Numbered from the stretch's first letter, positions 5,803-63,932 are shown. The stretch: DNA of 64,000 bases from Verrucomicrobiia bacterium (GCA_040380225.1 JBEIJN010000014.1:1995-65994), one strand, 5' to 3'. Made by a program: numbers and translations. Notes: a model not told the origin generated them from the sequence alone.

Positions 5803-6588
5803 TCAGACGAAGAAGGAGCTGATGACGTAATCGGCCACCAGAATGATGATGCTGGAATAAACCACCGCCCGGGTCGTGGCGGCGCTGACGGCCCTGGCTC
5901 CGCTTGCCGAGCGGTTCCGGTCGGCATGGAAGCCCTGATAGGCGCAGATGGCAACGGAGAGCAGGCCGAACGATGCCGCCTTCACGAAGCATTCCCTGAG
6001 GTCACGCGACTCCACTGCCCGCTCCACGGAGGACCAGTAGACCCCCGAATCGACTCCGAGCAGAAGCGACCCGGAGAGGGCGCCGCCCCATAGTCCGACA
6101 ACCACGAAGAGAGCCGCCTGAATCGGGAATGCCAGCACCGAAGCGATCAGGCGTGGTGCCACCAGGTATCCGTGACTGCTCACACCCATCGTCTCCAGCG
6201 CCACGATCTGCTCCGTGTTACGCTGCATCCCGAGCTCCGCGGCGAGAGCCGATCCGGCCTGACCGACCAGCATCAGGGCGGCCAGGACAGGCGCCATCTC
6301 GCGCACCAGACTCAGGGAGACCAGCGCCCCCAGCAGTCCCTCCGAACCGAAGCGGTTCAGGACATGATATCCCTGCAGTCCGAGGACGAGCCCCGTGAAG
6401 ATCCCGACGATCAGGATGACGGGGAGGCAGACGGTTCCCTGCTCATGGAGTGCCCGAATGATCCGGCGGCCGATCCTTCTGGCATGCAGCAAGGAACGGA
6501 AAGACCTTCCGGTGAACAGGGCGAAATCGCCGAATCCGGAAACAACCTGCAGAGTCTCTCGTCCGATCAGAGGCAACATTCCGACCAT
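5803..6588 (-). CDS. mlaE: ABC transporter permease MlaE
   Basis: 261 aa, multi-TM. MlaE-like LVREMAPVLAALMLVGQAGSALAAELGMQRNTEQIVALETMGV. Confidence 0.85.
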   Translation of the reverse strand: MVGMLPLIGRETLQVVSGFGDFALFTGRSFRSLLHARRIGRRIIRALHEQGTVCLPVILIVGIFTGLVLGLQGYHVLNRFGSEGLLGALVSLSLVREMAPVLAALMLVGQAGSALAAELGMQRNTEQIVALETMGVSSHGYLVAPRLIASVLAFPIQAALFVVVGLWGGALSGSLLLGVDSGVYWSSVERAVESRDLRECFVKAASFGLLSVAICAYQGFHADRNRSASGARAVSAATTRAVVYSSIIILVADYVISSFFV

Positions 6589-6788
6589 TCATGCATGAAA
6601 CGTCGTATTAAACAATACAATGCCATGTCCTCCCGATAGCTGGGGAAGTGTCGCTATATCCTAGGTTCAGGTCTCAGGTTTGCTTACCCGGCCGTTGCTT
6701 TGCAGCCGTTACGGCAGGTTTGATGGCACTTTGCTCCCGCAAAGCGGTGCCGCACTTTGCTACAGGGCTGCCTTCGGCAGTCTTCCGC

Positions 6789-6873
6789 GCCTGTTCCCAG
6801 GCTTGGTTCATCCTTCAGGTTTCAAGTTTCAGCTTTCAGGTTTCCCCTTCCCATTTTTCAGCCTTCAGCCTTT
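6789..6873 (+). repeat. 3'-UTR repeat module after bioA: covarying hairpin, then TTGGTTCA, then a GTTTCAG-type heptamer array
   Basis: GCCTG-TTCC-CAGGC (6789-6802), TTGGTTCA (6803-6810), then CCTTCAGGTTTCAAGTTTCAGCTTTCAGGTTTCC...TTTTTCAGCCTTCAGCC up to the bioA stop at 6875. Confidence 0.7.
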
Positions 6874-6874
6874 T

Positions 6875-8203
6875 TCACAATCCCTTCTGCCTTCCGAGGA
6901 ATTCCCCGATGACCCCGAAAGCGGTGTCGATCTGCTCGTCGGTGATGCAGTAAGGGGGGATGAAGTAGATGACGTTTCCGATCGTCCTCATCAGCAGTCC
7001 ATTCTCTTGGGCATAGGCCGCCAACTCGCGCCCCGCAGCCGCTGAATAGGCACTCTCCACCCCGGCCAGATCAAAGGCGGCGATCCCTCCCAGAATGCGG
7101 AGATGCTCGATCCGGGGGTTTCCAGCCAGAAGCCCCAGATGGCGCGCCATCCGGCGGTTGATCCGATCCACCTGACCCAGGGAATCAGTCTGCTCGTGGA
7201 GATCGAGACTGCAGAGAGCGGCCGCGCAGGCGACGGGATTGGCCGTGTAACTGTGGCCGTGCGCGAGGGCGGTCGAGAAGTCATTCCCTAGAAAGGAGTC
7301 GAAGAGGTTCTCCGCAACGATCGTCACCGCGAGCGGAAGAATGCCGCCGGTGATCCCCTTGGAGAGGCAGATCATGTCGGGAATGATGCCGGTCTGCTGG
7401 TAGGCAAAGAAGCTTCCTGTCCTTCCGAATCCGGTCATGACCTCGTCGAAGATCACGGGGATGCCCCGGTCACGGAAGAGAGCGCAGAGCTTTTCAAGGA
7501 ACTGGGGCGAGTGAAACCTCATCCCGCCGGCGCCTTGGACAAGGGGTTCGACGATGAGAGCCGCCATGGAGTCGGCATCTCCCTCAAGAAGACGCGCGAC
7601 CTCCTCCAGCGCCGCCTTCTCCCCTTCCTCGTTGGCGAATCCGTTCCAGATCAGCGGGACTGGCAGGGAGACGGTCTCGAACATCATCCCGTGAAAGGCA
7701 TCGAAGAACCCGGAACTGCGACCGACACTCATCGCCCCGACCGTGTCACCGTGGTAGCTGCCGAGGAGCGTCGCGAAGAGCCGGCGCGGCTCACCTCGAT
7801 TCACCCAATGCTGGTGGGCGATCTTCAATGCCGCCTCCACGGCCGTGGAGCCGTTGTCCGAGTAGAAGACCTTCGCACTCCCAGCGAGTCCCGCCTTCTC
7901 CAGCAGACGCTCCGCCAGACGGACGGCAGGCTCGTGGGTGGCCCCGGCGAACTGCACATGGTCGAGACGCTGGATCTGTTCCGCGACAGCTTGGGCCAAC
8001 TCCCGACGGCCGTGGCCATGGAGGTTCACCCACCAGGAAGAGATCATGTCCAGGTATTCCCGTCCCTGCGTGTCACGGAGCATGGCACCCCTGGCCTCCG
8101 CCACGGGAAGAAGGGGCCGCCCCAGACCATGCTGGGTGAAGGGATGCCAGATCACGGCGCCATCGCGGGCCAGCAGGGTGTCCAAGGAATCCGATGAGTC
8201 CAC
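6875..8203 (-). CDS. bioA: Adenosylmethionine-8-amino-7-oxononanoate aminotransferase
   Basis: 442 aa class-III aminotransferase: WHPFTQH, SDNGSTAVEAALKIA, DEVMTGFGRTG, LSKGITGG (PLP lysine). Confidence 0.85.
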   Translation of the reverse strand: MDSSDSLDTLLARDGAVIWHPFTQHGLGRPLLPVAEARGAMLRDTQGREYLDMISSWWVNLHGHGRRELAQAVAEQIQRLDHVQFAGATHEPAVRLAERLLEKAGLAGSAKVFYSDNGSTAVEAALKIAHQHWVNRGEPRRLFATLLGSYHGDTVGAMSVGRSSGFFDAFHGMMFETVSLPVPLIWNGFANEEGEKAALEEVARLLEGDADSMAALIVEPLVQGAGGMRFHSPQFLEKLCALFRDRGIPVIFDEVMTGFGRTGSFFAYQQTGIIPDMICLSKGITGGILPLAVTIVAENLFDSFLGNDFSTALAHGHSYTANPVACAAALCSLDLHEQTDSLGQVDRINRRMARHLGLLAGNPRIEHLRILGGIAAFDLAGVESAYSAAAGRELAAYAQENGLLMRTIGNVIYFIPPYCITDEQIDTAFGVIGEFLGRQKGL

Positions 8204-9752: not shown

Positions 9753-10014
9753 AAGTGGAATGCCGCCAACTCCTTGACGACAAGGTCTGAGCGGGCGAAT
9801 GGGTGGCGAATTAACTCGCGTGCTCCCGCACGTCTCGCCTTTCAGGCTGGCTTTGCCAGTCTACCTCGCTTTTTCCATAAGCTCGGTTCTCTTCTCGGGT
9901 ATCTCAAACCTGCCCTTGATAGGGATTCTATTTTTGATGGTGAGCTAGGCGCGCGAGCAATGCCGTAGTAAACCTACGGCAAGCGAAGAGCAACAAAGCT
10001 CACCGCAAAAAAAG

Positions 10015-15013: not shown

Positions 15014-15045
15014 CTCTTTCAGCTTTTTGGCGTTTCAGCTTTTCC
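15014..15045 (+). repeat. GTTTCAG-type short tandem motif in the 3' region of the 15096 gene
   Basis: CTCTTTCAGCTTTTTGGCGTTTCAGCTTTTCC. In minus-strand (mRNA) sense it reads GCUGAAAC / GCUGAAAG. Confidence 0.5.
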
Positions 15046-15095
15046 CTCCTAGCATCCTCCATCATCGATCCTCCATCCATCTCCGAGTTGCCGAC

Positions 15096-16029: not shown

Positions 16030-17154
16030 ATGAAAAATGATTCATCCAAACACGGGGGATTCCTCCCGGGACTCATCCGCCGCGAGTGGGTGCTACTGGC
16101 CAGTTACGGGACATCGGCCCTATTTCTCACGCAGGGCGCATCGTGGCTTGCAACCAACCCCGGACTGGCATGCGGCGCGGTCTTCTTCGTCTGGCTCTTC
16201 ACGGTGATGATGGCCTCCGCGTTCGCCATCTCACGCCATGCCGACCATCTCGCCCTGCAACTCAAAGAACCGCTCGGCACGCTGGTCCTCACCCTTGCGG
16301 TTACCAGCATCGAGGTGATGATGATCTCTGCCCTGATGCTCAAGGGCAACAATCCCGCACTGGCCAGGGACACGATGTTTTCTGTGGTGATGATCGTGCT
16401 GGGTGGACTCCTCGGCACGGCCCTGCTCACGGGAGGACTCCGCTTCGGGGAGCAGAATTTCAACATCAAGGGGGTGAACTCGTTTTTGGGCCTCATTCTA
16501 CCCCTGTCGGTCCTCTCGCTGGTGATGCCCAACTTCACCATTTCCGGGGGCGAGGGTTCGTTCTCGGTTATGCACGAGGTGAGTCTGATGCTCCTATCCT
16601 TCGCCATCTACGGAATCTTCCTCGCCGTGCAGACCAGGAGGCACCAGGAATTCTTCAATGAAAGGGAGACCGAATCCGCAAGCGGGGAGGAACATGAGAT
16701 CTGCGCCCCACCCCTCGTGGAGGCGCTGCTGATGATCCTTCACATGATACCGCTGGTCGTTCTCTCCAAGCAACTGGCCCGCCTGCTGGACTTCAGCATC
16801 GATTGCGGCGGCTTCCCAGCAGCACTGGGAGGCCTCGTGGTGGCCGTCCTCAGCCTGTCTCCCGAGGCATTGACCGCCATTCAGGCGGCGACTCGCAACC
16901 AGATGCAGCGCTCGGTGAACGTAATGCTGGGCTCCGTGCTTGCAACGATTGGAATGACGGTGCCTGCGGCGCTGGGCATCAGCCTCTTCACGGGAAAGCC
17001 GATCCATCTCGGCCTCTCCCCCATCTCGATGACCCTACTCGCAGTGACGCTGGGCAGTTGCATCATCACCTTCGGTCAGGGACAGACGAATATCCTGCAG
17101 GGATTCGTCCACCTGCTCCTCTTCGCAGCCTACATCGTGCTGATGTTTGACTGA
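16030..17154 (+). CDS. chaA: Ca2+/H+ antiporter (ChaA/CaCA family)
   Basis: 374 aa, about 11 TM. Two alpha-repeat-like regions: LVLTLAVTSIEVMMISALM and VVAVLSLSPEALTAIQAA. Confidence 0.75.
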   Translation: MKNDSSKHGGFLPGLIRREWVLLASYGTSALFLTQGASWLATNPGLACGAVFFVWLFTVMMASAFAISRHADHLALQLKEPLGTLVLTLAVTSIEVMMISALMLKGNNPALARDTMFSVVMIVLGGLLGTALLTGGLRFGEQNFNIKGVNSFLGLILPLSVLSLVMPNFTISGGEGSFSVMHEVSLMLLSFAIYGIFLAVQTRRHQEFFNERETESASGEEHEICAPPLVEALLMILHMIPLVVLSKQLARLLDFSIDCGGFPAALGGLVVAVLSLSPEALTAIQAATRNQMQRSVNVMLGSVLATIGMTVPAALGISLFTGKPIHLGLSPISMTLLAVTLGSCIITFGQGQTNILQGFVHLLLFAAYIVLMFD

Positions 17155-17428
17155 GGAAGCGCTGATTAAATCCCATGAAGGCCGCTGAAGAGCATTTGCT
17201 GATTTTTGAAGGCGCGAGCGCGGGGCGATACCCGCAGCGGTCTCGCCCGAGCGAGCAAATCGGCAAAAATCGACAAATGGCTTCAGCCCTTTGGGTTGCG
17301 GGGATAACAGGCCGGGGGCTGCGTTGGCTTGGCACTTACAGCCCACTGAGGGGATGCTCGTGCCAAGCCGCCTTGCCCGCGGCACATTCTTCCCGCAACG
17401 GCCTCTATGCGATTTAATCAGCGTTTCC
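17155..17428. repeat. 274-bp element bounded by 18-bp terminal inverted repeats (MITE-like or giant hairpin) filling the chaA/folB convergent gap
   Basis: GGAAGCGCTGATTAAATC (17155-17172) against the reverse complement of GATTTAATCAGCGTTTCC (17411-17428): 17/18 match, 13 contiguous. It starts 1 nt after the chaA stop. Confidence 0.55.
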
Positions 17429-17475
17429 CTAGGGAAGCGTCGACAGTCGAAAGACGAGGGTCGAGAGCCTGAGTT

Positions 17476-29865: not shown

Positions 29866-30063
29866 CTCGCGCAGAGACGCAGAGGCGCGGAGTAAAAGAC
29901 AAAGGATTGGGTCCGGAGAAGGTTGTCAGCGTTACTCCTATCGAATCGGAGAATCACTTGGCCGATTCATAATGGGGTCTGACGACTACTTTCAAGGGAG
30001 ATGTTTCTAAAGACGCATTGCCATTGGTCATAAAAACTCTGCGCCTCTGCGTCTCTGCGCGAG
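29866..30063. repeat. 198-bp unit bounded by 27-bp GCGCAGAG-family inverted repeats (MITE-like)
   Basis: CTCGCGCAGAGACGCAGAGGCGCGGAG (29866-29892) against the reverse complement of CTCTGCGCCTCTGCGTCTCTGCGCGAG (30037-30063): 26/27 match. Confidence 0.6.
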
Positions 30064-30156
30064 ATTTCTTGCCTTGTAAATGCATCCAATAAAACCGCAA
30101 CCACACTAAAAGGAAGCACCGGGGCACGACTCATTAATCCTGGGCTCATTTTTTCC

Positions 30157-30183
30157 CTCCGCGCCTCTGCGCCTCTGCGCGAG
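30157..30183. repeat. Third GCGCAGAG-family copy
   Basis: CTCCGCGCCTCTGCGCCTCTGCGCGAG, same orientation as 30037-30063. Confidence 0.6.
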
Positions 30184-32339: not shown

Positions 32340-32747
32340 TCAGGCCACCGATAACTTATAGCCGACGACATCAAGAGCCGGTATCGCGTCGAAGTGTTTG
32401 GGATTTCTGGTGATCACTGGCCTTTTTCGTGCGCTGGCAGCAGCGGCAATCCACAAATCAGGGTAGTCGGGAGCCTTGCCTCTTCGAGCCATCTCCACCC
32501 ATAACTCGCAGTAGCGATCCATGGTCCCTTGATCCAGTGCGAGAAGCAAAAAACTACTGTAAAAAGAAGAGAGTGACGGTAACGAGACTCCCTTGTATAG
32601 GGCTCCTCTTGAGAACTCCGCCTGTGTGATCCAAGGGACAATCAAGGATGCCTCTCCCACCTTTTCGATCAAATCGGAAATCCGTGCCGGCTTGTCCCTG
32701 AATCTCCAGAGATCGATCAAGACCGTTGTGTCAGCGATCAACTCCAT
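32340..32747 (-). CDS. vapC: PIN-domain toxin VapC
   Basis: 135 aa. MELIADTTVLIDLWR, ITQAEF, ITRNPKHFDAI. Overlaps the antitoxin by 10 nt. Confidence 0.8.
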   Translation of the reverse strand: MELIADTTVLIDLWRFRDKPARISDLIEKVGEASLIVPWITQAEFSRGALYKGVSLPSLSSFYSSFLLLALDQGTMDRYCELWVEMARRGKAPDYPDLWIAAAASARKRPVITRNPKHFDAIPALDVVGYKLSVA

Positions 32748-32962
32748 ACAGGAGGAAGCTGCTTGCGCGTCGCGTTGACTGATTGCTCCAGTTCCTGAAA
32801 GCCTGCCTCCGATAGTTTCGGCAGTGTCCTGGAGGCCTTGAGCGCCGCCTGGAGAGTACCCTTGGGGGGGATCAATTTCTCGATCACTTCGGAAAAGGTG
32901 TCCCCTTCCTTCCAGGAAAGCAGCCTCTGATATGCGGATTCAGAGAGGGAAATCGTTTTCAT
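32738..32962 (-). CDS. vapB: VapB-type antitoxin (short alpha-helical, DUF217-like)
   Basis: Start trimmed to MKTISLSESAYQRLLSWKEGDTFSEVIEKLI. Overlaps the vapC start. Confidence 0.6.
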   Translation of the reverse strand: MKTISLSESAYQRLLSWKEGDTFSEVIEKLIPPKGTLQAALKASRTLPKLSEAGFQELEQSVNATRKQLPPVWS

Positions 32963-33056
32963 ACACAGGACACATGACACATGACACAGAACACGAATCA
33001 TGTCAAACAGAGGTCAAGTTCTCAGTTCCCAGTGGGAACCTTACCGCCACACCCCC

Positions 33057-35840: not shown

Positions 35841-35917
35841 AAAGGTTAAAGTTAGTAGGGAAAATATCTCTGTATGTCGAGGAAAATGTTATTTTGGAGG
35901 GTTAAAAAGATGAAAAA

Positions 35918-36065
35918 GTTAAAAGGTTAAAAGAGGTTCAACCCACCCCCGCAGAACTCTCGCACCGAAAGCCGCTGCACTTTCGGAAAAGTGGTAGCCG
36001 TCGTGAATACCTCTTCGGCCCACATTGTAACGATTCAACGTTATAACTCTTTTAACCTTTTTAAC
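35918..36065. repeat. 18/19-bp inverted repeat GTTAAAAGGTTAAAAGAG flanking the infA/exonuclease divergent region
   Basis: GTTAAAAGGTTAAAAGAG (35918-35935) against the reverse complement of CTCTTTTAACCTTTTTAAC (36047-36065); one indel. Extra GTTAAAAAG word at 35901. Confidence 0.5.
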
Positions 36066-36097
36066 TTTTTATCCGGATGCGATAGCATCCGTGCTTC

Positions 36098-36649
36098 ATG
36101 TCCGCCCCAAAGAACATCGTCTATTTTGATCTGGAGACTCAGCGCACCGCCAATGACGTCGGCGGTTGGGACAAGAAAGCGGACATGGGAGTCTCCGTGG
36201 GGGTCACCTACAGCACGGGGACGCAGAGCTACGAGATCTTCACCGAGAAGCGGGTCGGCGATCTGATCGACCTGCTCGGGCGCGCCGATCTGGTGGTGGG
36301 CTACAACAACCGTCGCTTCGATTACGAGGTCCTCATGGGCTACACGATTCTCGACCTGCCCCACCATCTCCCCACGCTCGATCTTCTCGAAGTCGTCGAG
36401 AAGGCTGCGGGTCACAGGCTGCCGCTCGACTCCATCGCCACGGCCACACTCGGCGTCGGCAAGACGGCCGAGGGGCTTGATGCGATCCGCTGGTGGCGAG
36501 AGGGTAAGATGATGGAGATCGCGGAGTACTGCTGCTTCGACGTGAAGGTGACCAAGCTCGTGCACGAGTACGCCGTGCAGCACGGACAGCTCCACTACAT
36601 CGACCGCTTCTCCAGGAAGCAGACCCTGACGATCGAACTGCCATCATGA
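36098..36649 (+). CDS. RNase H-fold DEDD-type 3'-5' exonuclease-like protein
   Basis: 183 aa. ExoI VYFDLET, ExoII VVGYNNRRFDYEVL, ExoIII YCCFDVKVT. Confidence 0.6.
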   Translation: MSAPKNIVYFDLETQRTANDVGGWDKKADMGVSVGVTYSTGTQSYEIFTEKRVGDLIDLLGRADLVVGYNNRRFDYEVLMGYTILDLPHHLPTLDLLEVVEKAAGHRLPLDSIATATLGVGKTAEGLDAIRWWREGKMMEIAEYCCFDVKVTKLVHEYAVQHGQLHYIDRFSRKQTLTIELPS

Positions 36650-37944
36650 TCCAGCCCCTCGACTCAGCCCGCAACAGCTGGCGACTCCTCTGGATCGATC
36701 TGGAGGAACCCGTGCCGGCACCCGCTCAATCCGGTGAATCCGGAACCGGAGACTACTGCCTGCCGACCTGCCTTCTGGTGACCACCGCATCCGGCAAGCC
36801 GCTCTGCCCTCCCGAGATCCTGGAGGAACTCGACCAACCCCGCGCCGAGCAACTGCTGGGACGACTCTTCGACGAGCATGGCACGCCCGACCGCCTGACC
36901 ATCGCGGAGAGCAGCGACTGGGATACGGAGGCATGGCGCTCCTTCGCCATCGACTGCCGTATCGAGATCGCCTTTGGAGCCTTCCCTGAAGCCAAGCCGG
37001 GCGAACTGCTCCAAGTCGGCCGCAGGATCGCGCAGCGACTCAGGGGCGAAGGCTTCCACTCTCCGGGGGCCATTGCCCGGGGACTGGTCGCCACGGCGCG
37101 CCGCCTCCGCTCGCCGGAAAGAAAAAGCGCCCACCTGCGTAAGGCTATCGAGCAGGATTCAGAATGCGTCCTTGCACGGATCGAACTGGCCGACGCCGAC
37201 TATCAGGCAGCCCGATGGAACGAAGCCAGACGTGGCTATCAGGAGGTGGCCGAGCGCGAGGAGCGGCGCTGGCGCGGCGAGACTCCCGAATGGTGGGAGG
37301 ATCACGAGACACGCCCCTACATGAGGGCACTCTACGGGCGGGCGATGACCGAGTGGCACCAGGGACGCTTCGCGGAGACCGCCAAGGATTTGGAAAAACT
37401 CCTAAAACTCAACCCACGCGACAACCAGGGAGTCCGCTTCCTGATCCCGCTCGTCCACCTGCTGGGTGATGACGATGCCAAGGCGCTCAAATCCCTTGAG
37501 GAATACGATCGGAACTATCCCGACGACTACTGCGAGCCGTCGCTGCTTTTCGGCAAGGGGCTCGCCCTCTGGCGCTTGGGCGACGATGAACCGGCCCGCG
37601 CCGCCTACCGCACCGCGATGCTGCAGAACCTCTACATCACCCCGATGCTGCTGGATCTCCCCACCCCACCAGCCGACATCTGGCATCCCAACGACCGTTC
37701 CGAGATCAACTACGCCCAGGACTTCATGCAGTCCTACGCGATCCTGTGGGACAGGGAACCCGCAGCCACTCGGTTCATTTCCGAACTCCACGACGAACTG
37801 GCCCCGGAAATCGAGAAGATCCTCACCCTGCGCCGCACGATGGCGGATTGGCAGGACCAGCGCTACGACCGGGACTTCAAAGCCCGCTGGAAAGCCATGA
37901 TCGATCAGGACAAGTCACTGACGGGAGGAGCGGATAGGGAGTAG
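36646..37944 (+). CDS. TPR-repeat protein with an unknown N-terminal domain
   Basis: 432 aa. TPR-like helices (YQAARWNEARRGYQEVAE, ALYGRAMTEWHQGRFAETAKDLEKLLKLNPRDNQG). The ATG overlaps the exonuclease stop (ATGA). Confidence 0.55.
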   Translation: MIQPLDSARNSWRLLWIDLEEPVPAPAQSGESGTGDYCLPTCLLVTTASGKPLCPPEILEELDQPRAEQLLGRLFDEHGTPDRLTIAESSDWDTEAWRSFAIDCRIEIAFGAFPEAKPGELLQVGRRIAQRLRGEGFHSPGAIARGLVATARRLRSPERKSAHLRKAIEQDSECVLARIELADADYQAARWNEARRGYQEVAEREERRWRGETPEWWEDHETRPYMRALYGRAMTEWHQGRFAETAKDLEKLLKLNPRDNQGVRFLIPLVHLLGDDDAKALKSLEEYDRNYPDDYCEPSLLFGKGLALWRLGDDEPARAAYRTAMLQNLYITPMLLDLPTPPADIWHPNDRSEINYAQDFMQSYAILWDREPAATRFISELHDELAPEIEKILTLRRTMADWQDQRYDRDFKARWKAMIDQDKSLTGGADRE

Positions 37945-37951
37945 GGGATGG

Positions 37952-38000
37952 GAGAAACTTGAAACCTGAAAGCTGAAACCTGAACCAAGGCGGGGGCGAA
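37952..38000 (-). repeat. Heptamer array plus TGAACCAAGG module, reverse orientation (3' of the TPR gene)
   Basis: GAGAAACTTGAAACCTGAAAGCTGAAACCTGAACCAAGG-CGGGGGCG starts 8 nt after the TPR stop. It is the reverse complement of the 6789-6873 module. Confidence 0.65.
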
Positions 38001-38052
38001 AAATGAAAAAGGGGCGGAGATGTGAGTAAAGCGGACGGATGAAACCTGATTT

Positions 38053-38099
38053 CTGACAACCGACAACCGACAACTGACTCCCGACCTCCGACCACCAAC
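38053..38099. repeat. CGACAAC / CCGACC short-word array
   Basis: CTGACAACCGACAACCGACAACTGACTCCCGACCTCCGACCACCAAC. Confidence 0.5.
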
Positions 38100-50168: not shown

Positions 50169-52097
50169 TTACGGCATGACGGTTCGGTCGAGATAAGTGA
50201 CGTGATCTTTCACATACCCTTTGCGGAGATGGGCCTTGTCGAACCGGATGGGACCCTGCTCGTTCTCCTGGATGCACCAACCGTCGATGCACAGAAAATC
50301 AAGTGGATCGATCACCTCGGCACCGTTTGCCAGTGCAACACGTTTCATGTCCTTCCTTGAAATGAAGTCGCCGATTCCATTCAGGAACTCCTCCCGGCTC
50401 ACGGGAACGGGCCTGCTGATGCTGATGCCGGTGAAGGTCCTGGTGATGAAGTGACGTGGATCGAAGACATCGCCATTCGGGACGCTCAGCACCAGCACCA
50501 CCTCCTTGCCCTGCTCGTGTAGCGATCGAATAAGGGCTCCGAGGGCAGCGATAGCCTCGTTCTCACCTATCGGGGTCGCCAGAGAGTGACCGTTGATCTC
50601 AAACTTGCTTCCTTTCTTAAAATAAGGATCCCAGTTGGCAGCAATCACCACCCGTCGGATCAATGGGTTCTCCTGAAGCACGCCCATAAGACGGCCCATT
50701 GCAATCGCGGTGGTTTTTATTGGATCGATCACCCCGGGAATGGGTGGGCGACCGCCGGATCCCAGCATCAATACTCCTGTGTTTTTATCTTTGAGCCCGT
50801 TCACCACGATCCGGATGCGCGGCGCGTAATGCCACATGTTGCTGTCGCCAAGGTAAAGGGTTCGGATCTCCTTCCCACCAACCCTGCAGAGGTAGACATT
50901 CCCTTGAGTATCAGTCTCCCAACCATCGAAAAACCCTTGGTTTTTGGTGGCAAAAGCCACCTGCTCAATCCTTGCGGTCGTCGTCGGATAGATCCCCTTT
51001 CTCCAGATGATCCAACCGAAGATACCGGCAATGAGGAAGGATGCCACGAGCAACCAAAAAACAGCACGGGATCTCGTGTGGCGGAGCGGTTTCTCGATGA
51101 GATAGTAGGTGAAAATCGTCAGTACGAGTGCGACTCCCAAAGCCATCCAGATAACACCGGGCGGAGGATTGGTACCTTTGACAATATGCAGGAATGACAA
51201 GGCAGGCCAATGGAAGAGATAGAGCGGATAGCTGATCAGGCCGATCCAGACTATCGCCGGATAGGAAAGGAAGAAACGGTTGAACCAAGCTCCTTTTCCT
51301 CCCTCCATCACCAGAACCGTCCCGCATACTGGCAACAAGGCCCTCCATCCCGGATAGAAGGCATCCTCGTGAATGAAGGCAAAACCTGCCGCGAGCAGAA
51401 GTACTCCAACAAAGGATAAAAGATGCCTGTGTACCGGCACATCCTCCTCGTGCCCCCTTTCAAAGTGCCACCATGCCAGAAGCGAACCTCCGAGAAATTC
51501 CCATGACCTCCATGGGGTGAGGAAAAAAGCGGCGGAACCGCTTATGCGGGATATCAGGAGATTTCCGATCAACGAGGCCAGAAACAGCCCCCCCAGAACT
51601 CGGGCCATCGGCCAGCGTTTTCTGGCAACAAGGAGAAGCAGCGGGGGGAAGAAAATGTAGAACTGTTCTTCCACAGCCAGCGACCAGAGATGCAGGAGTG
51701 GCTTCGTGTCAGCCGCAGTATCGAAGTAACCGCACTCCTGCCAGAAGACGATGTTCTGGATAAAGACAGCTCCAGCCGCGACATGCTTCCCAAGTTGTTC
51801 GTATTCCCCCCGGAGCAGCACGAAGAACCCATAGGCAAGACAGAGTCCTAGTACTGCCACCAGCGAGGGAAAGAGGCGGCGAACCCGGCGCGCATAAAAC
51901 TCGGAAAAGCTGAAATCACCCGCCTTTACACCCTTGTAAAGGATCCCGCTGATCAGATAGCCGGAAATCACGAAGAAAATGTCCACACCGGTGAATCCTC
52001 CGGGCAACGCCTTGGGAAAGGCATGATAGACAATCACGCCGAGCACGGCGACAGCCCTCAGGCCATCGATGTCGGGGCGGTATCGCAGAGAGGTCAT
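50169..52097 (-). CDS. AT3-SGNH fused O-acyltransferase (OafA/YrhL-like), paralog 1
   Basis: 642 aa. YRPDIDGLRAVAVLGVIVYHAF, VDIFFVISGYLIS, LWSLAVEEQFYIFFP, ISYPLYLFHWP. C-terminal extracytoplasmic domain with LGDSNMWHY (SGNH block I-like). Confidence 0.8.
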   Translation of the reverse strand: MTSLRYRPDIDGLRAVAVLGVIVYHAFPKALPGGFTGVDIFFVISGYLISGILYKGVKAGDFSFSEFYARRVRRLFPSLVAVLGLCLAYGFFVLLRGEYEQLGKHVAAGAVFIQNIVFWQECGYFDTAADTKPLLHLWSLAVEEQFYIFFPPLLLLVARKRWPMARVLGGLFLASLIGNLLISRISGSAAFFLTPWRSWEFLGGSLLAWWHFERGHEEDVPVHRHLLSFVGVLLLAAGFAFIHEDAFYPGWRALLPVCGTVLVMEGGKGAWFNRFFLSYPAIVWIGLISYPLYLFHWPALSFLHIVKGTNPPPGVIWMALGVALVLTIFTYYLIEKPLRHTRSRAVFWLLVASFLIAGIFGWIIWRKGIYPTTTARIEQVAFATKNQGFFDGWETDTQGNVYLCRVGGKEIRTLYLGDSNMWHYAPRIRIVVNGLKDKNTGVLMLGSGGRPPIPGVIDPIKTTAIAMGRLMGVLQENPLIRRVVIAANWDPYFKKGSKFEINGHSLATPIGENEAIAALGALIRSLHEQGKEVVLVLSVPNGDVFDPRHFITRTFTGISISRPVPVSREEFLNGIGDFISRKDMKRVALANGAEVIDPLDFLCIDGWCIQENEQGPIRFDKAHLRKGYVKDHVTYLDRTVMP

Positions 52098-52108: not shown

Positions 52109-54046
52109 TTAGGGAGCAACGGTAAAATCGAGGTACATCAACTTATCCCTGACATATCCCGGACGGAGGTGCGTAGCATCATAGCGGATGGGACCATCAG
52201 TATCTTCGGCGATACACATGCCGTCCACGCAAAGGTAATCCATAGGGTCAATTACCTCCGCTCCGTTTCTTCGTGCCACCGCAGCGATCTCGGACAAGAA
52301 ATCCCCCCTATCTTCAAGAAACTCCTTCACAGTCAGTCGACCCGCCGAACAGCTGCGAACCCCAGTGAAATCCCTTGCGAAAAAACTTTTTGGATCGAGC
52401 AGATCACCCGACGGCACGCTTAGCACAAGCGTGACTTGTTTCCCGGACAGCGCAAAATTGTTTATTTCGCGCCCCAAATCCTCAAGGGCAGTTTTTCTTC
52501 CATTCACGCCGCTCATGGGTTGCCCTTGATGCAAGTATTTTGAGTGATCCATGAAATAGGCATGCCAGCGAGCTGCTATCACCACACGGTCAATTCTTGG
52601 ATCAGAGTTCAGTACCTCATGGATCTTTGGCATCAACGCCACACACCTTGGTTTTGCGGGATGGGTTACGCGGGGAATCGGGGGAACCCCGACAGATGTC
52701 AGAAAAAGAGCCCCCCTTGCCGGATTGGCAGACTGTTTAGTCAAGAGCCTCAATATTCGCGGTGCATACTGCTGGGCATTACTGTCGCCGATATAGAGTG
52801 TCTGCGGCCCTTCCCCTCCAGCATGGTTGAAGCTAAAGAGTTGAGCATCACCCAAGCACTGCAATCCCGCCAGCGAATCATGATCGCGCGTTGCCGTCAC
52901 ACACTTCTGAACATCGCCTGAAACCGATATTGCTGGGATCCAACCCCTGAAAATCGCCCAACCAGCAAATCCCAAGAGAAGGTAGATCAGGATGAGAGTG
53001 GGCAACACCCGGGCGGACATGCAGTACCTGATCTTTTTCTCAACGAGATAGTAAGTGATGAGCGTCAGCGCGAAGGCAACTCCCAAGGCCATCCAGATAA
53101 GTTCCGGCTCAGGATTCGCACCTTTGACGATGTGAAGGAACGACAATGCCGGCCAGTGGAAGAGGTAGAGGGGATAGCTAATTAGCCCCACATACACCAT
53201 TGCAGGATGGGAAAGGATCCTTCTGTTCACCCAAGCACCGCCGCCCCCCTCGATCACCAGCAGCGTACCCGCTACTGGCAGCAGGGCTCGCCATCCGGGA
53301 TAGGGTTGCGCCTTCGTCAGCAAGATCATGCCTAGCAGCATCAGGATGGCCCCCGCCCAGGAAAGGATCTCCCTGTGCTTTGGCTTCTCCGCATGATGAG
53401 CCCGATCATAGTGCCACCATGCAAGGAGACTTCCTGCCAGGAACTCCCATGCCCGATAGGGCGTCAGGAAGAAGTCTGAGGCTGCACTCTGATACGACAT
53501 CACCACGTTGCCAATGAAGGAACCGATGAGAAGCACGCCCATGATGGCTGCAGGCGGCCACTTCTTTTTCCAGATCAGCAGTAGGAGCGGCGGAAAGAAG
53601 ATATAGAACTGTTCCTCCACCGCAAGCGACCAGAGGTGGAGTAGCGGCTTGAGAATGGCCGCCGTGTCAAAATAACCGCTCTCCTGCCAGAAAACCATAT
53701 TCTGGATAAAGAGAGTTCCTGCCGCCACATGCTTTCCCAGCTTCTCATACTCGTCCGGCAGCAGAATGACCCACCCATAGCCCAGGCAGAGCAGCAGAAC
53801 GGTGATGAGCGAAGGAAAGAGCCTCCTGATACGCCGTGCGTAGAACTCCTTGAAGCTGAAGGGCCCTTCCCTATGACCCTTGTAGAGAATCCCGCTGATC
53901 AGATATCCGCTAATCACGAAGAAGATATCCACCCCGCTGAACCCTCCCGGCAATAACTTCGGGAACGCATGGAAAATGATGACGCCGAGAACCGCCACAG
54001 CCCTTAGGCCATCAATGTCGGGACGGTATCTCAGTGAAACACTCAT
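52109..54046 (-). CDS. AT3-SGNH fused O-acyltransferase, paralog 2 (tandem duplicate)
   Basis: 645 aa. N-terminal AT3 half is highly similar to paralog 1 (same motifs). The C-terminal half (IGDSNAQQY) is clearly more diverged. Confidence 0.8.
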   Translation of the reverse strand: MSVSLRYRPDIDGLRAVAVLGVIIFHAFPKLLPGGFSGVDIFFVISGYLISGILYKGHREGPFSFKEFYARRIRRLFPSLITVLLLCLGYGWVILLPDEYEKLGKHVAAGTLFIQNMVFWQESGYFDTAAILKPLLHLWSLAVEEQFYIFFPPLLLLIWKKKWPPAAIMGVLLIGSFIGNVVMSYQSAASDFFLTPYRAWEFLAGSLLAWWHYDRAHHAEKPKHREILSWAGAILMLLGMILLTKAQPYPGWRALLPVAGTLLVIEGGGGAWVNRRILSHPAMVYVGLISYPLYLFHWPALSFLHIVKGANPEPELIWMALGVAFALTLITYYLVEKKIRYCMSARVLPTLILIYLLLGFAGWAIFRGWIPAISVSGDVQKCVTATRDHDSLAGLQCLGDAQLFSFNHAGGEGPQTLYIGDSNAQQYAPRILRLLTKQSANPARGALFLTSVGVPPIPRVTHPAKPRCVALMPKIHEVLNSDPRIDRVVIAARWHAYFMDHSKYLHQGQPMSGVNGRKTALEDLGREINNFALSGKQVTLVLSVPSGDLLDPKSFFARDFTGVRSCSAGRLTVKEFLEDRGDFLSEIAAVARRNGAEVIDPMDYLCVDGMCIAEDTDGPIRYDATHLRPGYVRDKLMYLDFTVAP

Positions 54047-57224: not shown

Positions 57225-58460
57225 TCAGTCCAGCACGATCCGTGCAGGCATGCCCGCAATCATCGGATCACATCCTCCGTGACGCATTGCGCGTGATATA
57301 TTGCCATCTCCATCGCAGATCCAGTTTTCGGCGGCTCCGGCTTTGGACAAGAGACCGATGTTTTTGAATATCTGCTCCTCGCTGGTGTCATGGGATTTCA
57401 TATGGACGCAGATTTCGGGAGCTCCCGAGTATGCGGGCAGGCGACATAGAGTGGAACGCCGCGCTTCCGAGATCCAAGCCACATCGGCGACGCGAACACC
57501 ATCCCCGGTCTCGATCGGCACATCGACCAGCACATGCCCGCCCTGCAGCGACCGGGCCAGAAGCGAGCTGATAGCACCGACCATTTCGGCACGTCTCGAT
57601 CCCGTACCTGCTGAAAAATGCGATGCGCCGTGAAGATGAAGCCCCTCCGTGTAGAAGTCCGCCGCCTCCAGCGCGGGCGCATCGCAGACCACCCTTCCTT
57701 GCTGCAGGACGATGGCCCGGTTGCAGAGTTGCTTCACACTCTCGGCGGCATGACTCACGAAGAGAATCGTCACCCCTGAGTTCTTCGTCGCCTCGATCTT
57801 CTCAAGGCACTTCTCCTGGAACGCCGCATCCCCCACGGCCAGCACTTCGTCGAGGATCAGGATCTCCGGATCCAGATGAGCCGCCACGGAGAATGCCAAC
57901 CGGACTCGCATGCCGCTAGAGTAACGCTTGACCGGCGTGTCCATGAACTTCTCGATCTCGGCAAAGGAAAGGATCTGGTCATAGCGATCATCGATTTCCT
58001 TCTTTTTTAGCCCAAGGATACTTCCGTTGAGATAGACATTCTCCCTGCCGGTGAGCTCCTGGTGAAATCCGGTTCCCACCTCCAGGAGACTTGCCACGCG
58101 CCCCTTCATGTATGCTTTTCCCTCGGTGGGAGCAGTTATCCTGGAGAGAAGCTTCAACAGCGTGGACTTGCCGGAGCCATTGCGCCCCATGATTCCCACG
58201 ATGTCACCTTGATGGACTTCAAAGCTTATATTCTTCAGAGCCCAGAAGTCATAGGCCTCCGGCAAGCTGTCCGTATTCTGTTCATGGACACGGCTATTGG
58301 GGTCTGTTTTTCCCAGCTTCCTTGAGACATAGCTCTCGATCTGATCGACCAGCATCTTCCGGGTGATCACCCCCAGGCGGTATTTTTTGGAAAGGCCCTC
58401 GGCACGAATCACGCACTCCTTAAGTGCATTATTCGATATTGTTAATTGGTCATTATGCAT
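57225..58460 (-). CDS. wzt: Polysaccharide ABC exporter ATP-binding protein (Wzt/TagH-like) with an atypical C-terminal domain
   Basis: Walker A GRNGSGKST, signature YSSGMRVRLAFS, Walker B ILILDEVLAVGD. The C-terminal ~135 aa resemble the Uma2/DUF820 fold (see findings). Confidence 0.85.
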   Translation of the reverse strand: MHNDQLTISNNALKECVIRAEGLSKKYRLGVITRKMLVDQIESYVSRKLGKTDPNSRVHEQNTDSLPEAYDFWALKNISFEVHQGDIVGIMGRNGSGKSTLLKLLSRITAPTEGKAYMKGRVASLLEVGTGFHQELTGRENVYLNGSILGLKKKEIDDRYDQILSFAEIEKFMDTPVKRYSSGMRVRLAFSVAAHLDPEILILDEVLAVGDAAFQEKCLEKIEATKNSGVTILFVSHAAESVKQLCNRAIVLQQGRVVCDAPALEAADFYTEGLHLHGASHFSAGTGSRRAEMVGAISSLLARSLQGGHVLVDVPIETGDGVRVADVAWISEARRSTLCRLPAYSGAPEICVHMKSHDTSEEQIFKNIGLLSKAGAAENWICDGDGNISRAMRHGGCDPMIAGMPARIVLD

Positions 58461-58521: not shown

Positions 58522-58553
58522 CTCAGGTTTCATGTTTCAGGTTTCAGATTTCG
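58522..58553 (+). repeat. GTTTCAG-type heptamer array in the wzm-wzt spacer
   Basis: CTCAGGTTTCATGTTTCAGGTTTCAGATTTCG, 12 nt downstream of the wzm stop. Confidence 0.65.
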
Positions 58554-58564
58554 TCTCTTTTCCC

Positions 58565-59422
58565 CTACGCCGTATCCACGCTCGTCTGCTCGACTTTGTT
58601 GAAGACGATCAACCCCAGAAAAAGGATCCCGATGCTCAGTGTTGCGCTGATCACGACCTGCCCGAAGGTAACGGTCCCCTGCCCCATGAATGCGCATCGA
58701 AATGCCTCGATCACAAAGACAATCGGGTTCCAATCATACATCCATCGGTAGCTCTCAGGAACCACCTTCAGTGGATAGACCACACAGCTTGCGTACATCC
58801 AGAGCTGCATAAAGAAACCAAGCAGCACCTGGAGATCTCGAAACCTGCTTGTCACTCCAGAAATCAGGCAACCCACCCCCAGACCGAGTGCAGCCATCTG
58901 GATGATGAGTACCGGTAATACGATGATCCTCCAGTCAAGGCGGATAGGCGCCCCGTGGAAGTAAAACCAGAGATAGAACGCAAAGAAGAGGACTAATCCC
59001 ATGGCCAGTCCCACGAGATTGGTGATCAGTTGGGAGATCGGCACGGCCAATCGCGGAAAGTAGACTTTATCGAACATTCCTTGGTTCGAGGTGAAGGTGT
59101 TCGCCGTCTTGGTCACACACTCAGAGAAATACCTCCAGCAGACCGTTCCGGAGAGATAGAAGAGAATCGGCGGAATTTCCCCAGTGGAGATCTTGGCAAC
59201 CCTTGTGAAGACCAGCACGAACATAAGGCTCTGCAGCAGCGGCTGCAGCACATACCAGAAGGATCCCAGAACCGTCTGCTTATACTGGGAGACGAAGTCC
59301 CTGTGGGCCATCAGCCCGATCATCTCCCGGTAGTCCCAGAGTTCCTTGAAGGGGATGTACAGGAGATTACGCCGGGGAGTGATGACCGTAGTCCAGGATT
59401 CGGAAGTTGAAGATGAGGACAT
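58565..59422 (-). CDS. wzm: ABC-2 type polysaccharide exporter permease (Wzm/KpsM/TagG-like)
   Basis: 285 aa, 6 TM. ELWDYREMIGLMAHRDFVSQYKQTVLGSFWYVLQPLL, NPIVFVIEAFR. Confidence 0.8.
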   Translation of the reverse strand: MSSSSTSESWTTVITPRRNLLYIPFKELWDYREMIGLMAHRDFVSQYKQTVLGSFWYVLQPLLQSLMFVLVFTRVAKISTGEIPPILFYLSGTVCWRYFSECVTKTANTFTSNQGMFDKVYFPRLAVPISQLITNLVGLAMGLVLFFAFYLWFYFHGAPIRLDWRIIVLPVLIIQMAALGLGVGCLISGVTSRFRDLQVLLGFFMQLWMYASCVVYPLKVVPESYRWMYDWNPIVFVIEAFRCAFMGQGTVTFGQVVISATLSIGILFLGLIVFNKVEQTSVDTA

Positions 59423-59536: not shown

Positions 59537-59971
59537 TCAAATCACGCAAAGATTTTTCTCTTCCGCATCGTTCACTGCAGAAATGGGAATTTTTGTATCA
59601 AATGTCACGAGTCGCCCCTGGCGAGACACTGCCAATCCTAGCAGGTAAAGATCCGTTAAATATCGTGAACTATGAATGCGCTCGCATGCAAAGATGGCTT
59701 TGTTCCGAAGGGAAATGGAATCACCCCAAAATTCATGATCCGTCGAATCGACGAACTGGCGCATCTGGCCGATCAGATCACCGGGCAAGAACTGCATTGT
59801 CCGGCTGTATCCGGGATTGGACATGATGCGTACAGCTCCGTTTTCCGTGAGCGGACAACTGGCCCATCCATCCCCTCCATGCATTGCCCACCAACCATGC
59901 GCCCTCTCGTGAAATGAATGATCCGGATCAAAGAGCGCAATGATCACATTGATATCCAACAATGCCCGCAT
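59537..59971 (-). CDS. vapC: PIN-domain toxin VapC
   Basis: 144 aa. MRALLDINVIIALFDPDH, CPLTENG, YLTDLYLLGLAVSRQGRLVTFD. Confidence 0.8.
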   Translation of the reverse strand: MRALLDINVIIALFDPDHSFHERAHGWWAMHGGDGWASCPLTENGAVRIMSNPGYSRTMQFLPGDLIGQMRQFVDSTDHEFWGDSISLRNKAIFACERIHSSRYLTDLYLLGLAVSRQGRLVTFDTKIPISAVNDAEEKNLCVI

Positions 59972-60215: not shown

Positions 60216-60388
60216 GCATCTGATGATAGTGCATCAATCTATCCAAGTCAAACCAAGTTGTGACACCCCTTGTCTTGTTTACCGATAACCGATTACCCAT
60301 TCCCAATCCCCTTTAAAGACCTCCATGCTCTTCATGGTTATTCCATTAAGATTTTTCATTTTCCGCCTATCCCTCCAGTCTTCCGCGC

Positions 60389-60575
60389 CGCTTCCCAGCG
60401 ACTTGGTTCAGGGTACTTTGAACTCGCTTGCTTTGCCTCGGCCTCTCCCTAGGCCCTCGTCCTACGGACTGCTTTGCAGGCTTCATCGTGCCTCCCGGCA
60501 CTCGATGATCGCAAGGCTCGACCCTCTGGGGCTGCTTTCAGCAGTCCTACTCGGTCTTCCCCAGACCTCGTTTCA
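60389..60575 (+). repeat. Full unit of the structured intergenic repeat, bounded by two hairpin+(T)TGGTTCA/TCGTTTCA modules
   Basis: CGC-TTCCCA-GCG-ACTTGGTTCA (60389-60410); TTTGAACTCGCTTGCT (60417-60432, identical to 63980-63995). Hairpins at 60440-60455, 60483-60508 and 60532-60544. GGTCT-TCCCC-AGACC-TCGTTTCA (60553-60575). Confidence 0.65.
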
Positions 60576-60734
60576 CTATCCCCATTTTCCAATTTCCTTA
60601 TTTCTAATTTCTAGATTTCCCAATTTTTCCCTCTCTACTCATTCATCATTCATCATTCATCATTTTGCATTTTCCCCTCCCCTCCCGTGAAGCCGTGGCG
60701 CCCTCTGGGCTACGATTTCATCGTAGTCTACCGC

Positions 60735-60817
60735 GTGCCATCCCAGGCGCTTGGTTCAAGTTTCAGCTTTTCATCTCTGGCACTCGACGCTCGACCCTCG
60801 ACCCTCGACTCAGCTCG
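60735..60817 (+). repeat. Hairpin+TTGGTTCA module, heptamer array and CTCGAC array overlapping the 3' end of the GT2 gene
   Basis: GTGCC-ATCCCA-GGCGC-TTGGTTCA (60735-60758), AGTTTCAGCTTTTCATC, CACTCGACGCTCGACCCTCGACCCTCGACTCAGCTCG (60781-60817). Confidence 0.65.
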
Positions 60818-61629
60818 TCCGCCCACCCCTGCACCATCAGCGGAGGATCCTTGAAGAGGTTCCAGCAGAGGTGATCGAAGATAGAGCGGGGCAATCTGAA
60901 GGGCTGTTTGGAGAGAAGATTACGGATCTGGAAAGAGAGGTTATTCCTATCCAGGGGGCCATTGTGACGCCGGCCAATCCGGGCAATCTCTCTCATCCGC
61001 TTCCACCCTCCCGTGTTGGTCTTTGTATCCTCATAGTAACGGATATTGGCCAGATGCTGAGGAATCGTTACGACCTTCCCGATTTTCGAGAGCTTCAGGA
61101 GCAGATCCCAGTCCATCGCATAGTGCAGAGACTCATCCAGGCCCCCCACTTTCCAGTAGGCATCACGCCTGAAGAACATGGCCGGCTGGACTGCTCCAAA
61201 GGCCCATGACAAACGTTTTGGGCAAAACTCACGAAAAGGAACTTTTTTGATAATACTCCCGTCCAGATCTGTCTTGGCTCCAACTCCGTAGATCACGACT
61301 GTATCCGGGTTTTTAGAGAATGCCTCTTCAACCGCATGGAGAGCCCCTGGGAGAAGGATATCGTCAGAGTTTAACCACCCAACGATCTCTCCAGTTGCCA
61401 CCCTCATTCCCTTATTGATCGCATCACTCTGGCCTCGGTCAGGCTCTACAAAGAGCTTCAGCTTCCCCTCCGTCTCCGCCTTCTTCCAGATCTCGATCAC
61501 CCCGTCAGTCGACCCTGCATCATAGACGATGTGCTCTAGATCCGGGTACTGCTGGACATCCAGCGAGGCCAGCATCTCAGGAGCAAAGACAGCCTGATTC
61601 AGGCTGGGGGTAATAATGGAGATCTTCAT
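60763..61629 (-). CDS. Glycosyltransferase family 2
   Basis: MKISIITPSLNQAVFAPEMLASLDVQQYPDLEHIVYDAGSTDG, LNSDD. Alternative start at 61668. The last ~18 codons are encoded by the repeat arrays. Confidence 0.8.
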   Translation of the reverse strand: MKISIITPSLNQAVFAPEMLASLDVQQYPDLEHIVYDAGSTDGVIEIWKKAETEGKLKLFVEPDRGQSDAINKGMRVATGEIVGWLNSDDILLPGALHAVEEAFSKNPDTVVIYGVGAKTDLDGSIIKKVPFREFCPKRLSWAFGAVQPAMFFRRDAYWKVGGLDESLHYAMDWDLLLKLSKIGKVVTIPQHLANIRYYEDTKTNTGGWKRMREIARIGRRHNGPLDRNNLSFQIRNLLSKQPFRLPRSIFDHLCWNLFKDPPLMVQGWADELSRGSRVERRVPEMKS

Positions 61630-61674
61630 TTCACTATTTTTCTCGGTCTCTACACTGTTGGATTTCACAATTTT

Positions 61675-63175: not shown

Positions 63176-63556
63176 TCAGTTGCCAGCTTTCGGGAAAAAG
63201 CGTACGGCAGGAAGGTCTTCAAAGTGGCGATCTTGAGTCCATAAGTCCGCATCCACACTCAAAGAGGATGCATAGACCAGCGCGTCGGCCATAGCCAACT
63301 TGTGCCGGCAAGCTATCTCCGCCGCTGCATCTGCAATGGCATCATCGACGTGCAACTGATCGAACTTGGCAAGCACGCACACTGCCATTTCGCGGCCTGC
63401 CTCCCCCTTGTGAGTCAGCGTATAGCGGCCGACTTCATACCGAACAACCGCAGGTACGAAAAGCTGCTCAGCTTGAAGAGCAGGCTCAAACAAGCCGGCT
63501 CGATCTGAACCTGCCAAAAGCTCTATCCACCCGGAGCTATCGAGAACAACCCTCAT
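63176..63556 (-). CDS. vapC: PIN-domain toxin VapC
   Basis: 126 aa. MRVVLDSSGWIELL, AMADALVYASS, LWTQDRHFEDL. 4-nt overlap with the antitoxin. Confidence 0.8.
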   Translation of the reverse strand: MRVVLDSSGWIELLAGSDRAGLFEPALQAEQLFVPAVVRYEVGRYTLTHKGEAGREMAVCVLAKFDQLHVDDAIADAAAEIACRHKLAMADALVYASSLSVDADLWTQDRHFEDLPAVRFFPKAGN

Positions 63557-63774: not shown

Positions 63775-63932
63775 GTCTAGATGGTAAAGCGTTTTTACAT
63801 CGATGTCAATATGCTTTCCTTGAAGAAGCAAGAACGACTCCATTTCCCTGCTTTTCGACACAGTTATTTCTGCTCCTAAAAGCCTTCAGTCTTTTATCTG
63901 CTGATGGCTGGCCCCAGGCTAGCCGTACGGGT

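Follow-up and report, generated by a model that had tools for sequence, protein, structure and literature searches.

The window, meaning here the whole 64,000-nucleotide stretch of DNA that was analysed, has its protein matches in the Verrucomicrobia, near Chthoniobacterales and Terrimicrobiaceae. On its minus strand lie mlaE (5803-6588), bioA (6875-8203; stop codon 6877-6875), wzt (57225-58460), wzm (58565-59422; stop codon 58567-65), and GT2 (60763-61668; stop codon 60765-63, inside a heptamer unit), and on its plus strand a gene for a TPR protein (36646-37944; stop codon 37942-44). These genes were identified with Pfam, and the gene names of a first-pass annotation agree with the Pfam result. 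Loci and contigs compared with the window carry L numbers.

The spacer between bioA and mlaE is occupied by a nest of repeats on the minus strand. A degenerate heptamer array (6811-6877) starts in phase with the TGA stop codon of bioA and proceeds through GGCTGAA, AAACCTG, AAAGCTG, and AAACTTG units to TGAACCA. It is joined by a copy of an approximately 96-nt structured repeat (6717-6810; 82.9 bits and E=1e-16 with the R1 covariance model). This copy is composed of TGAACCAAG, hairpin 1 with a GNRA loop, CGCGGAAGA, hairpin 2, hairpin 3 with a 3-nt bulge and a GGGA loop, and ATCAAACC, and the CCCnnnGGG mini-hairpin of other copies is broken in it. A short distal array, AAACCTG AGACCTG AACCTAG (6661-6684), has the same orientation as the bioA array and closes the nest before mlaE.

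Similar arrays were found elsewhere in the window. Directly 3′ of the TPR-gene stop codon lies a plus-strand array (37945-37989) that reads GGGATGG GAGAAACT TGAAACC TGAAAGC TGAAACC TGAACCAAG, the last element being "solo" with no hairpin module behind it. The spacer is then filled, up to a convergent SH3-like ORF, by TGAAACCTGATTTC and a (GACAACC)n period-7 array (38040-38096, plus strand), which is kept in L247. The wzm-wzt array, GAAATC TGAAACC TGAAACA TGAAACC TGAG (58522-58553, minus strand), begins 11 nt past the wzm stop codon and lies 62 nt (or 101 nt) 5′ of the wzt start. At the end of GT2 (60754-60812, minus strand), a (GGTCGAG)4 array inside the last codons is followed by TGAAAAGC TGAAACT TGAACCA, and the stop codon of GT2 is the TGA of one array unit. 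The (GGTCGAG)4 array at 60781-60812 makes up the last 16 or so codons. Thus, the C-terminus of GT2 is apparently repeat-encoded, and the next array provides the stop codon. The nest 3′ of GT2 (60350-60758, minus strand) holds structured repeats at 60667-60758, 60479-60575, and 60350-60410 (partial), scoring 78.6, 32.5, and 30.1 bits, which are separated by (TGAATGA)n at 60636-60666 and by GAAAT-type 7-8-nt arrays at 60579-60626. At 63885-63984 (minus strand), 5′ of a MazE/PIN toxin-antitoxin pair, a TTCAAACC TGAAAC stub precedes a variant module (TGAAACGAG, hairpin 1, GAGTAG, hairpin 2) which scores below the threshold of the R1 model. At 15014-15081 (minus strand), two AAAAGCTGAAA words accompany a (GAGGATG)n period-7 array (15053-15081) that begins about 15 nt past the stop codon of the 15096 gene; this region is kept in L001.

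Existence and position of the arrays

The first-pass annotation had listed six sites of a CUGAAAS heptamer array. Three of them are solid (CTGAAAS)n arrays, at 6813-6873, 37952-37986, and 58522-58553 in plus-strand coordinates. TRF found a period of 7 at 6814-6844 (4.4 copies, 83% matches), 6857-6872 (2.3 copies), 37954-37984 (4.4 copies, 87% matches), and 58523-58552 (4.3 copies, 86% matches). Two further sites, 60754-60775 and 63973-63984, are stubs of about two units each and are in fact the 5′ edge of the larger structured repeat. The sixth, 15014-15045, is not a heptamer array: its two AAAAGCTGAAA words lie 18 nt apart and 51 nt from the stop codon, and both are kept in L001 at about 92% DNA identity. 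With one mismatch allowed, TGAAASYTGAAA matches the window 13 times against 0.71 expected, a count reached in none of 100 shuffles, and all 13 matches are confined to five loci. The lone hexamer TGAAAC is not enriched in the window (30 occurrences, 25.6 expected). Thus, it is the tandem layout that carries the signal.

All arrays of the window are intergenic or sit at ORF ends, in spacers that are probably transcribed, as had been proposed. In each of the four evaluable loci (bioA, TPR, wzm, and GT2), TGAAA reads in the sense direction of the gene that has its stop codon just 5′ of the array. The distance from the stop codon to the array is 1 nt, 7 nt (TPR), or 11 nt (wzm), and the two overlap in GT2; the next start codon is 62-225 nt away. 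Hence the sense orientation and the close abutment to the upstream stop codon, on which the first-pass annotation had built its proposal of an RNA signal, hold within the window, although an all-sense pattern at four independent loci has by itself a one-sided p of about 0.06. It had also been stated that UGAACCAAG and a covarying hairpin follow the array in three cases. This was borne out at 6810 and 60758, whereas only the 9-mer, without hairpins, is present at 37981. A TGA recurs in phase in each unit of the window arrays, beginning with the stop codon of bioA itself. Thus, none of the three frames stays open on the sense strand, and an ORF running into an array ends on it or right at it.

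An Rfam search of the window (gathering score; E ≤1) gave no match at the arrays or the structured repeats, only a tRNA-Gly passing. A scan of the three array regions for intrinsic terminators found no hairpin with a T-run, in agreement with the earlier view that these are not usual terminators, and a promoter scan at the arrays found none.

Repeat class, structured module, and turnover between relatives

Many other words with a period of 7 or 8 are present in the window: ACACATG (32962), TAGGTGA (35578), GACAACC (38052), TCATTCA (60636), CTCGACC (60781, 26291, and 27625), CTCTGCGC (20960 and 29866-30183), and GTTAAAAA (35901 and 36044, inverted). At equal stringency, 223 kb of the lineage contained 18 arrays of period 7, 16 of period 8, eight of period 6, six of period 9, and at most two of any other period. 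Beyond the lineage, a GAAANNTGAAANNTGAAANNTGAA scan of species-representative genomes found TGAAANN arrays in at least 120 loci, and those listed belong to Bacteroidota, Acidobacteriota, Planctomycetota, Chloroflexota, Cyanobacteria, Bacillota, and others. The mixed 19-mer GAAACYTGAAAGCTGAAAC, which is common to two window arrays, occurs in at least 120 metagenome contigs, and those listed mostly have 53-65% G+C; among the matches listed, 88 of the 96 metagenome arrays fall outside the ORFs that were called. In summary, the arrays have three or more head-to-tail copies above chance, are mostly intergenic, vary between relatives, and come in many words. The CUGAAAS arrays are real, fast-changing members of the known bacterial class of heptanucleotide simple sequence repeats (SSRs), to which the long SSRs, the cyanobacterial STRRs, and the GGGAATC and TAACTGA repeats described below also belong. 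What is new here is the host lineage, the repeat words, the orthologous comparisons of array and module turnover, and a lead on array polarity, which tracks GC skew.

The resemblance to long SSRs with 5-11-nt units is close. According to the summary of Mrazek 2007 in PMC4679880, heptamers are the most abundant of these in most genomes. As far as that summary describes them, long SSRs, including the cyanobacterial STRR heptamers, are like the window arrays head-to-tail 7-nt repeats of 3-6 copies, mostly intergenic, with several words per genome, a preference for period 7, and a copy number that varies between relatives. The present arrays differ in their words (TGAAACC, TGAAAGC, GGCTGAA, GGGATGA, and others) and in their Verrucomicrobia host; moreover, period 8 is almost as common here and a structured 96-nt repeat stands alongside. 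Word and host also separate the window arrays from STRR1-3. The latter are CCCCAGT, TTGGTCA, and CAACAGT repeats of heterocystous cyanobacteria.

Position biases have been described for two other heptamer families. [quoted passage not shown] 2015, PMC4692102). The arrays studied here are likewise weakly nearer the ORF on their 5′ side (49 against 32 within 40 nt, in summed counts; median distances 44 and 94 nt). However, the Xanthomonas and Nostoc repeats are G-rich, form G-quadruplexes, and were reported at conserved locations, whereas the present ones are A-rich, form no G-quadruplex, and turn over fast. In marine Beggiatoaceae, Cyanobacteria, and Bacteroidetes, 147 of 170 sets of TAACTGA repeats point at a start codon, the largest single category ends 1 nt 5′ of it, and a post-transcriptional role was proposed (MacGregor 2015, PMC4679880). 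These share with the present arrays a length of 2-6 heptamer units, richness in stop codons, intergenic location, biased orientation, and a scattered distribution over phyla. The word is different, and the window arrays abut the upstream stop codon and are remote from the next start. Heptamer hairpins of the form (GTTTCAR)n, loop of about 20 nt, (YTGAAAC)n, ending from a few to 25 nt 5′ of an ATG, were seen in Pyrinomonadaceae, Flavobacterium, and other genomes (L060, L076, L122, L036, L044, L081, L089, L167, and L174). Inverted array pairs as 5′-UTR hairpins are few and mixed cases.

The element TGAACCAAG proved to form the 5′ end of a four-hairpin unit about 96 nt long. The order in this module is TGAAMCRAG, hairpin 1 (GNRA loop), CGCGGTAGA, hairpin 2, CCCnnnGGG, hairpin 3 (3-nt bulge, GGGA loop), and GTCAAACC. 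In nine copies, 91.9% of the cells pair, compared with 35-39% when the partners are slid, and nine base pairs have changed on both sides. Across 223 kb of the lineage, a covariance model recovered 26 copies at E<0.01. Copies point either way relative to genes, many lack an array 5′ of them, and most have GTAG or GAAG 5′ of hairpin 2. Minus-strand copies of the window are at 6717-6810, 60667-60758, 60479-60575, 60350-60410, and 9808-9890, and more were found in L247, L248, L186, L211, and L194; in L186, the modules are direct tandem copies with a 96-nt period. A copy about 125 nt 3′ of the tRNA-Gly gene is kept in relatives with about 80% BioA protein identity (L002 and L244).

The module resembles palindromes of the REP, BIME, and SMAG type in being clustered, variable in number, hairpin-forming, and intergenic, in its compensatory stem changes, and in the G(T/A)AG 5′ of hairpin 2 in most copies. 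REP and BIME elements are marked by an imperfect palindrome, a GTAG-type 5′ tetranucleotide, and a cognate RAYT gene. The module differs from the REP type in having four hairpins in about 96 nt, GNRA-type loops, an often direct tandem arrangement, and no Rfam match; no RAYT (Y1 transposase) gene was found among the window ORFs scanned. The module is carried by only five of 100 array-selected metagenome contigs, and adjoins an array in three of the five, among the matches listed. Thus, arrays and module are distinct elements that occur together in the nests of this lineage, and the idea that arrays are a mere 5′ leader of the module was rejected as a general rule. The 96-nt repeat is a separate candidate, of modest interest, for a new REP-like or RNA family.

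How stable are these elements between relatives? The relatives used here share 79-97% protein identity with the window, and copy number, repeat word, and presence all vary among them. L001 has about 92% DNA identity to the window, yet its intergenic regions are replaced or have indels. In the bioA spacer, L001 has retained only AAAGGCTAAAGGCTGAAGCTTGAAGG and lacks the hairpin module, the corresponding spacer of L002 (81%) has 95 nt and no array, and the other relatives at this locus (L244-L246) have almost no additional arrays. The TTCATCC array between acs and rpoA, antisense to both genes, has about one unit in L249, two in the window, and four in L247. In the thrC-lysC spacer, the window has (CCCTCGA)n, while L247 has (GGCTGAA/GGCTAAA)n antisense to both genes. 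The TPR nest has no module in the window, where the array and the solo TGAACCAAG are present, two modules in L247 (in the order module, array, long module, array), and three or four in L248 together with GGGATGG and TATGAAT arrays. The junction of the window nest falls within a 24-nt stretch common to two L247 arrays, as would be expected from recombination between arrays. The wzm-wzt array is missing in L251 (85%); in L252 (79% Wzt identity), 34 of its 37 nt are identical while the remaining spacer has diverged. In L250 (92%), the site has a PF05635 ORF between long inverted GAAAT-type arrays instead of the solo array of the window.

The L250 cassette (1640-2376) encodes a PF05635 protein (23S rRNA intervening-sequence protein, S23p) between wzm and wzt, and the ORF is enclosed by inverted arrays of about 150 nt made of 6-8-nt GAAAT-type units; it is IVS-like but outside rRNA. 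In Coxiella, variable GACAGAT heptamers precede the S23p ORF of such an intervening sequence, and RNase III cleaves the terminal stem of the element (PMC4990558). The L250 layout is like the 23S rRNA IVS in having a small ORF within inverted terminal repeats and variable heptamers just before the start. It differs in not residing in rRNA, and the window has the solo array only, with no PF05635 ORF. Neither PF05635 nor a transposase was found among the window ORFs scanned; the small ORFs near arrays belong to VapBC, PIN, and MazE toxin-antitoxin systems.

Toxin-antitoxin cassettes (VapBC, MazE/PIN, and PIN) are found in the same repeat-rich spacers, at 32340-33001, 63176-63861, and 59537-59971 of the window and 4285-4954 of L252. 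The VapBC pair with about 1 kb is an insertion between acs and rpoA relative to L247 and L249, and a (CATGTGT)n array lies immediately 5′ of the VapB start codon. L001 carries an inserted 88-nt module where the window has an empty site. Inverted pairs of octamer arrays (GTTAAAAA and CTCTGCGC) surround cores of 100-250 nt at 35901-35942 with 36040-36073 and at 29866-29897, 30036-30063, and 30152-30183 of the window, and at 18194-18492 of L001 (reverse strand). One octamer-flanked element is inserted in L001 when compared with the window and looks MITE-like, with ends built of short tandem units.

Array orientation, transcription, and GC skew

The sense orientation of the window arrays had been read as a coupling to transcription, and therefore as an RNA signal. 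A strand-bias test that had been set beforehand was run on extended samples. For the metagenome contigs, which carry no taxonomy and whose arrays are not independent when they share one contig, genes were called by codon log-odds trained on the window; checked on L001 and L002, this caller found 39 of the 46 called genes and made two false calls. A naive longest-ORF caller was dropped, since it made too many wrong-strand calls at this G+C range. Among the matches listed, metagenome arrays with the window 19-mer in co-directional spacers were sense in 18 cases and antisense in 29, and those within 60 nt past a stop codon were sense in 17 and antisense in 13. Stop codons occur on exactly one strand in 136 of 223 period-7 arrays. 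In about 800 kb, such one-strand-stop arrays in co-directional spacers were sense in 34 cases and antisense in 34, and within 40 nt past a stop codon the numbers were 28 and 20, which is not significant. Independent loci inside the lineage gave about six sense and three antisense arrays. The antisense arrays of close relatives include those in the acs-rpoA and thrC-lysC spacers, which are likely operons, and number three in all. The genome-scan set, a mixture of words and phyla, leans to sense (17:8, among the matches listed). These results show no general bias toward the sense of the upstream gene, and the proposed coupling does not extend beyond the window. No general coupling of array orientation to transcription was seen in these samples.

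Array orientation tracks GC skew better than it tracks transcription. Among the matches listed, the array-sense (GAAAC) strand coincides with the G-rich one in 44 of 62 metagenome contigs (p=0.0013), in 41 of 62 when GC3 skew is used, and in 20 of the 25 contigs of 8 kb or longer. When all purine-asymmetric period-7 arrays of the metagenome and lineage loci L124-L252 and of the window are taken together, the purine-rich strand coincides with the locally G-rich strand (by GC3 skew) in 72 cases and does not in 40. The genome-scan set has no link to skew (52:49, among the matches listed). In the window, GC skew is negative whichever way the genes point, and four of the five arrays, with their genes, are on the G-rich strand; only the TPR array departs from this and follows its gene. 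Since the genes of the window are mostly on the G-rich strand, an apparent coupling to transcription would arise there. The leading strand is usually G-rich. Thus, the skew polarity suggests a replication-linked polarity of the arrays, one that would pass for a coupling to transcription wherever genes run in the direction of replication. If this lead holds in complete genomes, it would point to a replication-linked origin, through slippage or strand-specific repair, and would be a warning against reading such arrays as 3′-UTR signals.

Origin of the arrays

I favour, at a probability of roughly 0.55, the reading that the arrays are heptanucleotide SSRs made by slippage and recombination, tolerated past stop codons and at nest junctions, with a polarity that comes from skew and not from transcription. 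The arrays would arise and change through slippage and unequal recombination between units, and would be tolerated where intergenic spacers are free, just past the stop codons. In the Chthoniobacterales-like lineage, they may serve as linkers or junctions in repeat nests with the four-hairpin repeat, and recombination between arrays may gain and lose hairpin modules. The purine-rich (GAAAC) strand would tend toward the G-rich, presumably leading, strand, where most window genes also lie. Against this stand the four evaluable window loci, all sense and within 11 nt of a stop codon, the TPR array, which defies the skew, the genome-scan set, which leans to sense and has no link to skew, and the wzm-wzt array, which is the best-kept part of its spacer in a 79% relative. 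A purely neutral model leaves the conserved wzm-wzt array unexplained, and particular copies such as this one may have a local role at the RNA level.

The original idea was that (CUGAAAS)n is an RNA cis-element, a single-stranded A-rich platform in the mRNA just past the stop codon, whose orientation is selected and which binds a protein, marks a processing site, or shields the terminating ribosome from downstream hairpins. The all-sense window arrays at 0-11 nt from the stop codon fit it, as do sense arrays 11-15 nt past stop codons in L001 and L002, the conservation of the wzm-wzt array in L252, the similar position biases of the TAACTGA and GGGAATC repeats (PMC4679880, PMC4692102), and a tract that is predicted to be unpaired beside stable hairpins. 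However, the sense bias is not seen outside the window, close relatives have antisense arrays in the likely acs-rpoA and thrC-lysC operons, the word differs at orthologous sites, the array is missing in L251, L002, L244, and L246, and the bioA-mlaE spacer has a predicted fold of no unusual stability (z = -0.9). I regard this explanation as distinctly doubtful. A further candidate is a multi-frame safety net, in which a TGA every 7 nt is selected past genes against read-through and frameshift. The in-phase TGA of each window unit from the bioA stop codon on, the GT2 ORF that ends on an array TGA, and the one-strand stop codons of 136 out of 223 period-7 arrays fit it, whereas the 34:34 split in co-directional spacers and the non-significant 28:20 near stop codons largely refute it. 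This candidate was rejected, and its probability is very small.

Could the arrays instead form the ends or junctions of small intergenic elements that move or recombine? Candidates would be the 96-nt module, the IVS-like S23p cassettes, and the MITE-like inserts; solo arrays would then be footprints or empty sites, with an orientation inherited from the element. An array and TGAACCAAG are found on both sides of the module, the number of modules varies among relatives, and in L186 a (TATGAAT)n array runs into GATGAACCAAG and then three tandem 96-nt units. The 88-nt L001 module at a site empty in the window, the inverted 8-mer arrays around the inserts at 35901-36073 and in L001, and the inverted partner within 200 nt of about 20% of metagenome arrays (among the matches listed) are also consistent with it, as is the PF05635 ORF with inverted GAAAT-type arrays that stands in L250 exactly at the solo wzm-wzt array of the window, for which the Coxiella IVS with its GACAGAT heptamers offers a parallel (PMC4990558). 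On the other hand, the module is present in only five of the 100 array-selected contigs listed and next to the array in only three of these, most arrays have no inverted partner, module copies point either way relative to genes and often lack a 5′ array, the L001 insertion has no clean target-site duplication, and the window ORFs scanned include neither a transposase nor a PF05635 gene. On balance, this explanation seems unlikely, and the heptanucleotide SSR reading is preferred.

It was also considered whether the arrays and the 96-nt GNRA-capped units belong together in a single, undescribed system of intergenic repeats in Chthoniobacterales-like Verrucomicrobia, which appears rather improbable as a whole. 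In such a system, the in-phase TGA arrays could be junctions that gain or lose modules and S23p or toxin-antitoxin cassettes, and their polarity would be that of the DNA strand (replication-linked). Individual copies, the conserved wzm-wzt array for one, could have taken on a role as inter-cistronic RNA signals or as sites to which a multimeric nucleic-acid-binding protein binds, for example one of the pentameric four-helix bundles of the S23p/Avd type.

A 262-nt insertion at 17161-17423 of the window is absent from L001 and has at its borders 46-nt inverted repeats (17142-17187 and 17396-17441) that are 76% complementary. Two adjacent paralogues, 50169-52097 and 52109-54046, encode proteins of 642 and 645 amino acids, and their 73-81% DNA identity at an offset of 1946 nt indicates a tandem gene duplication.
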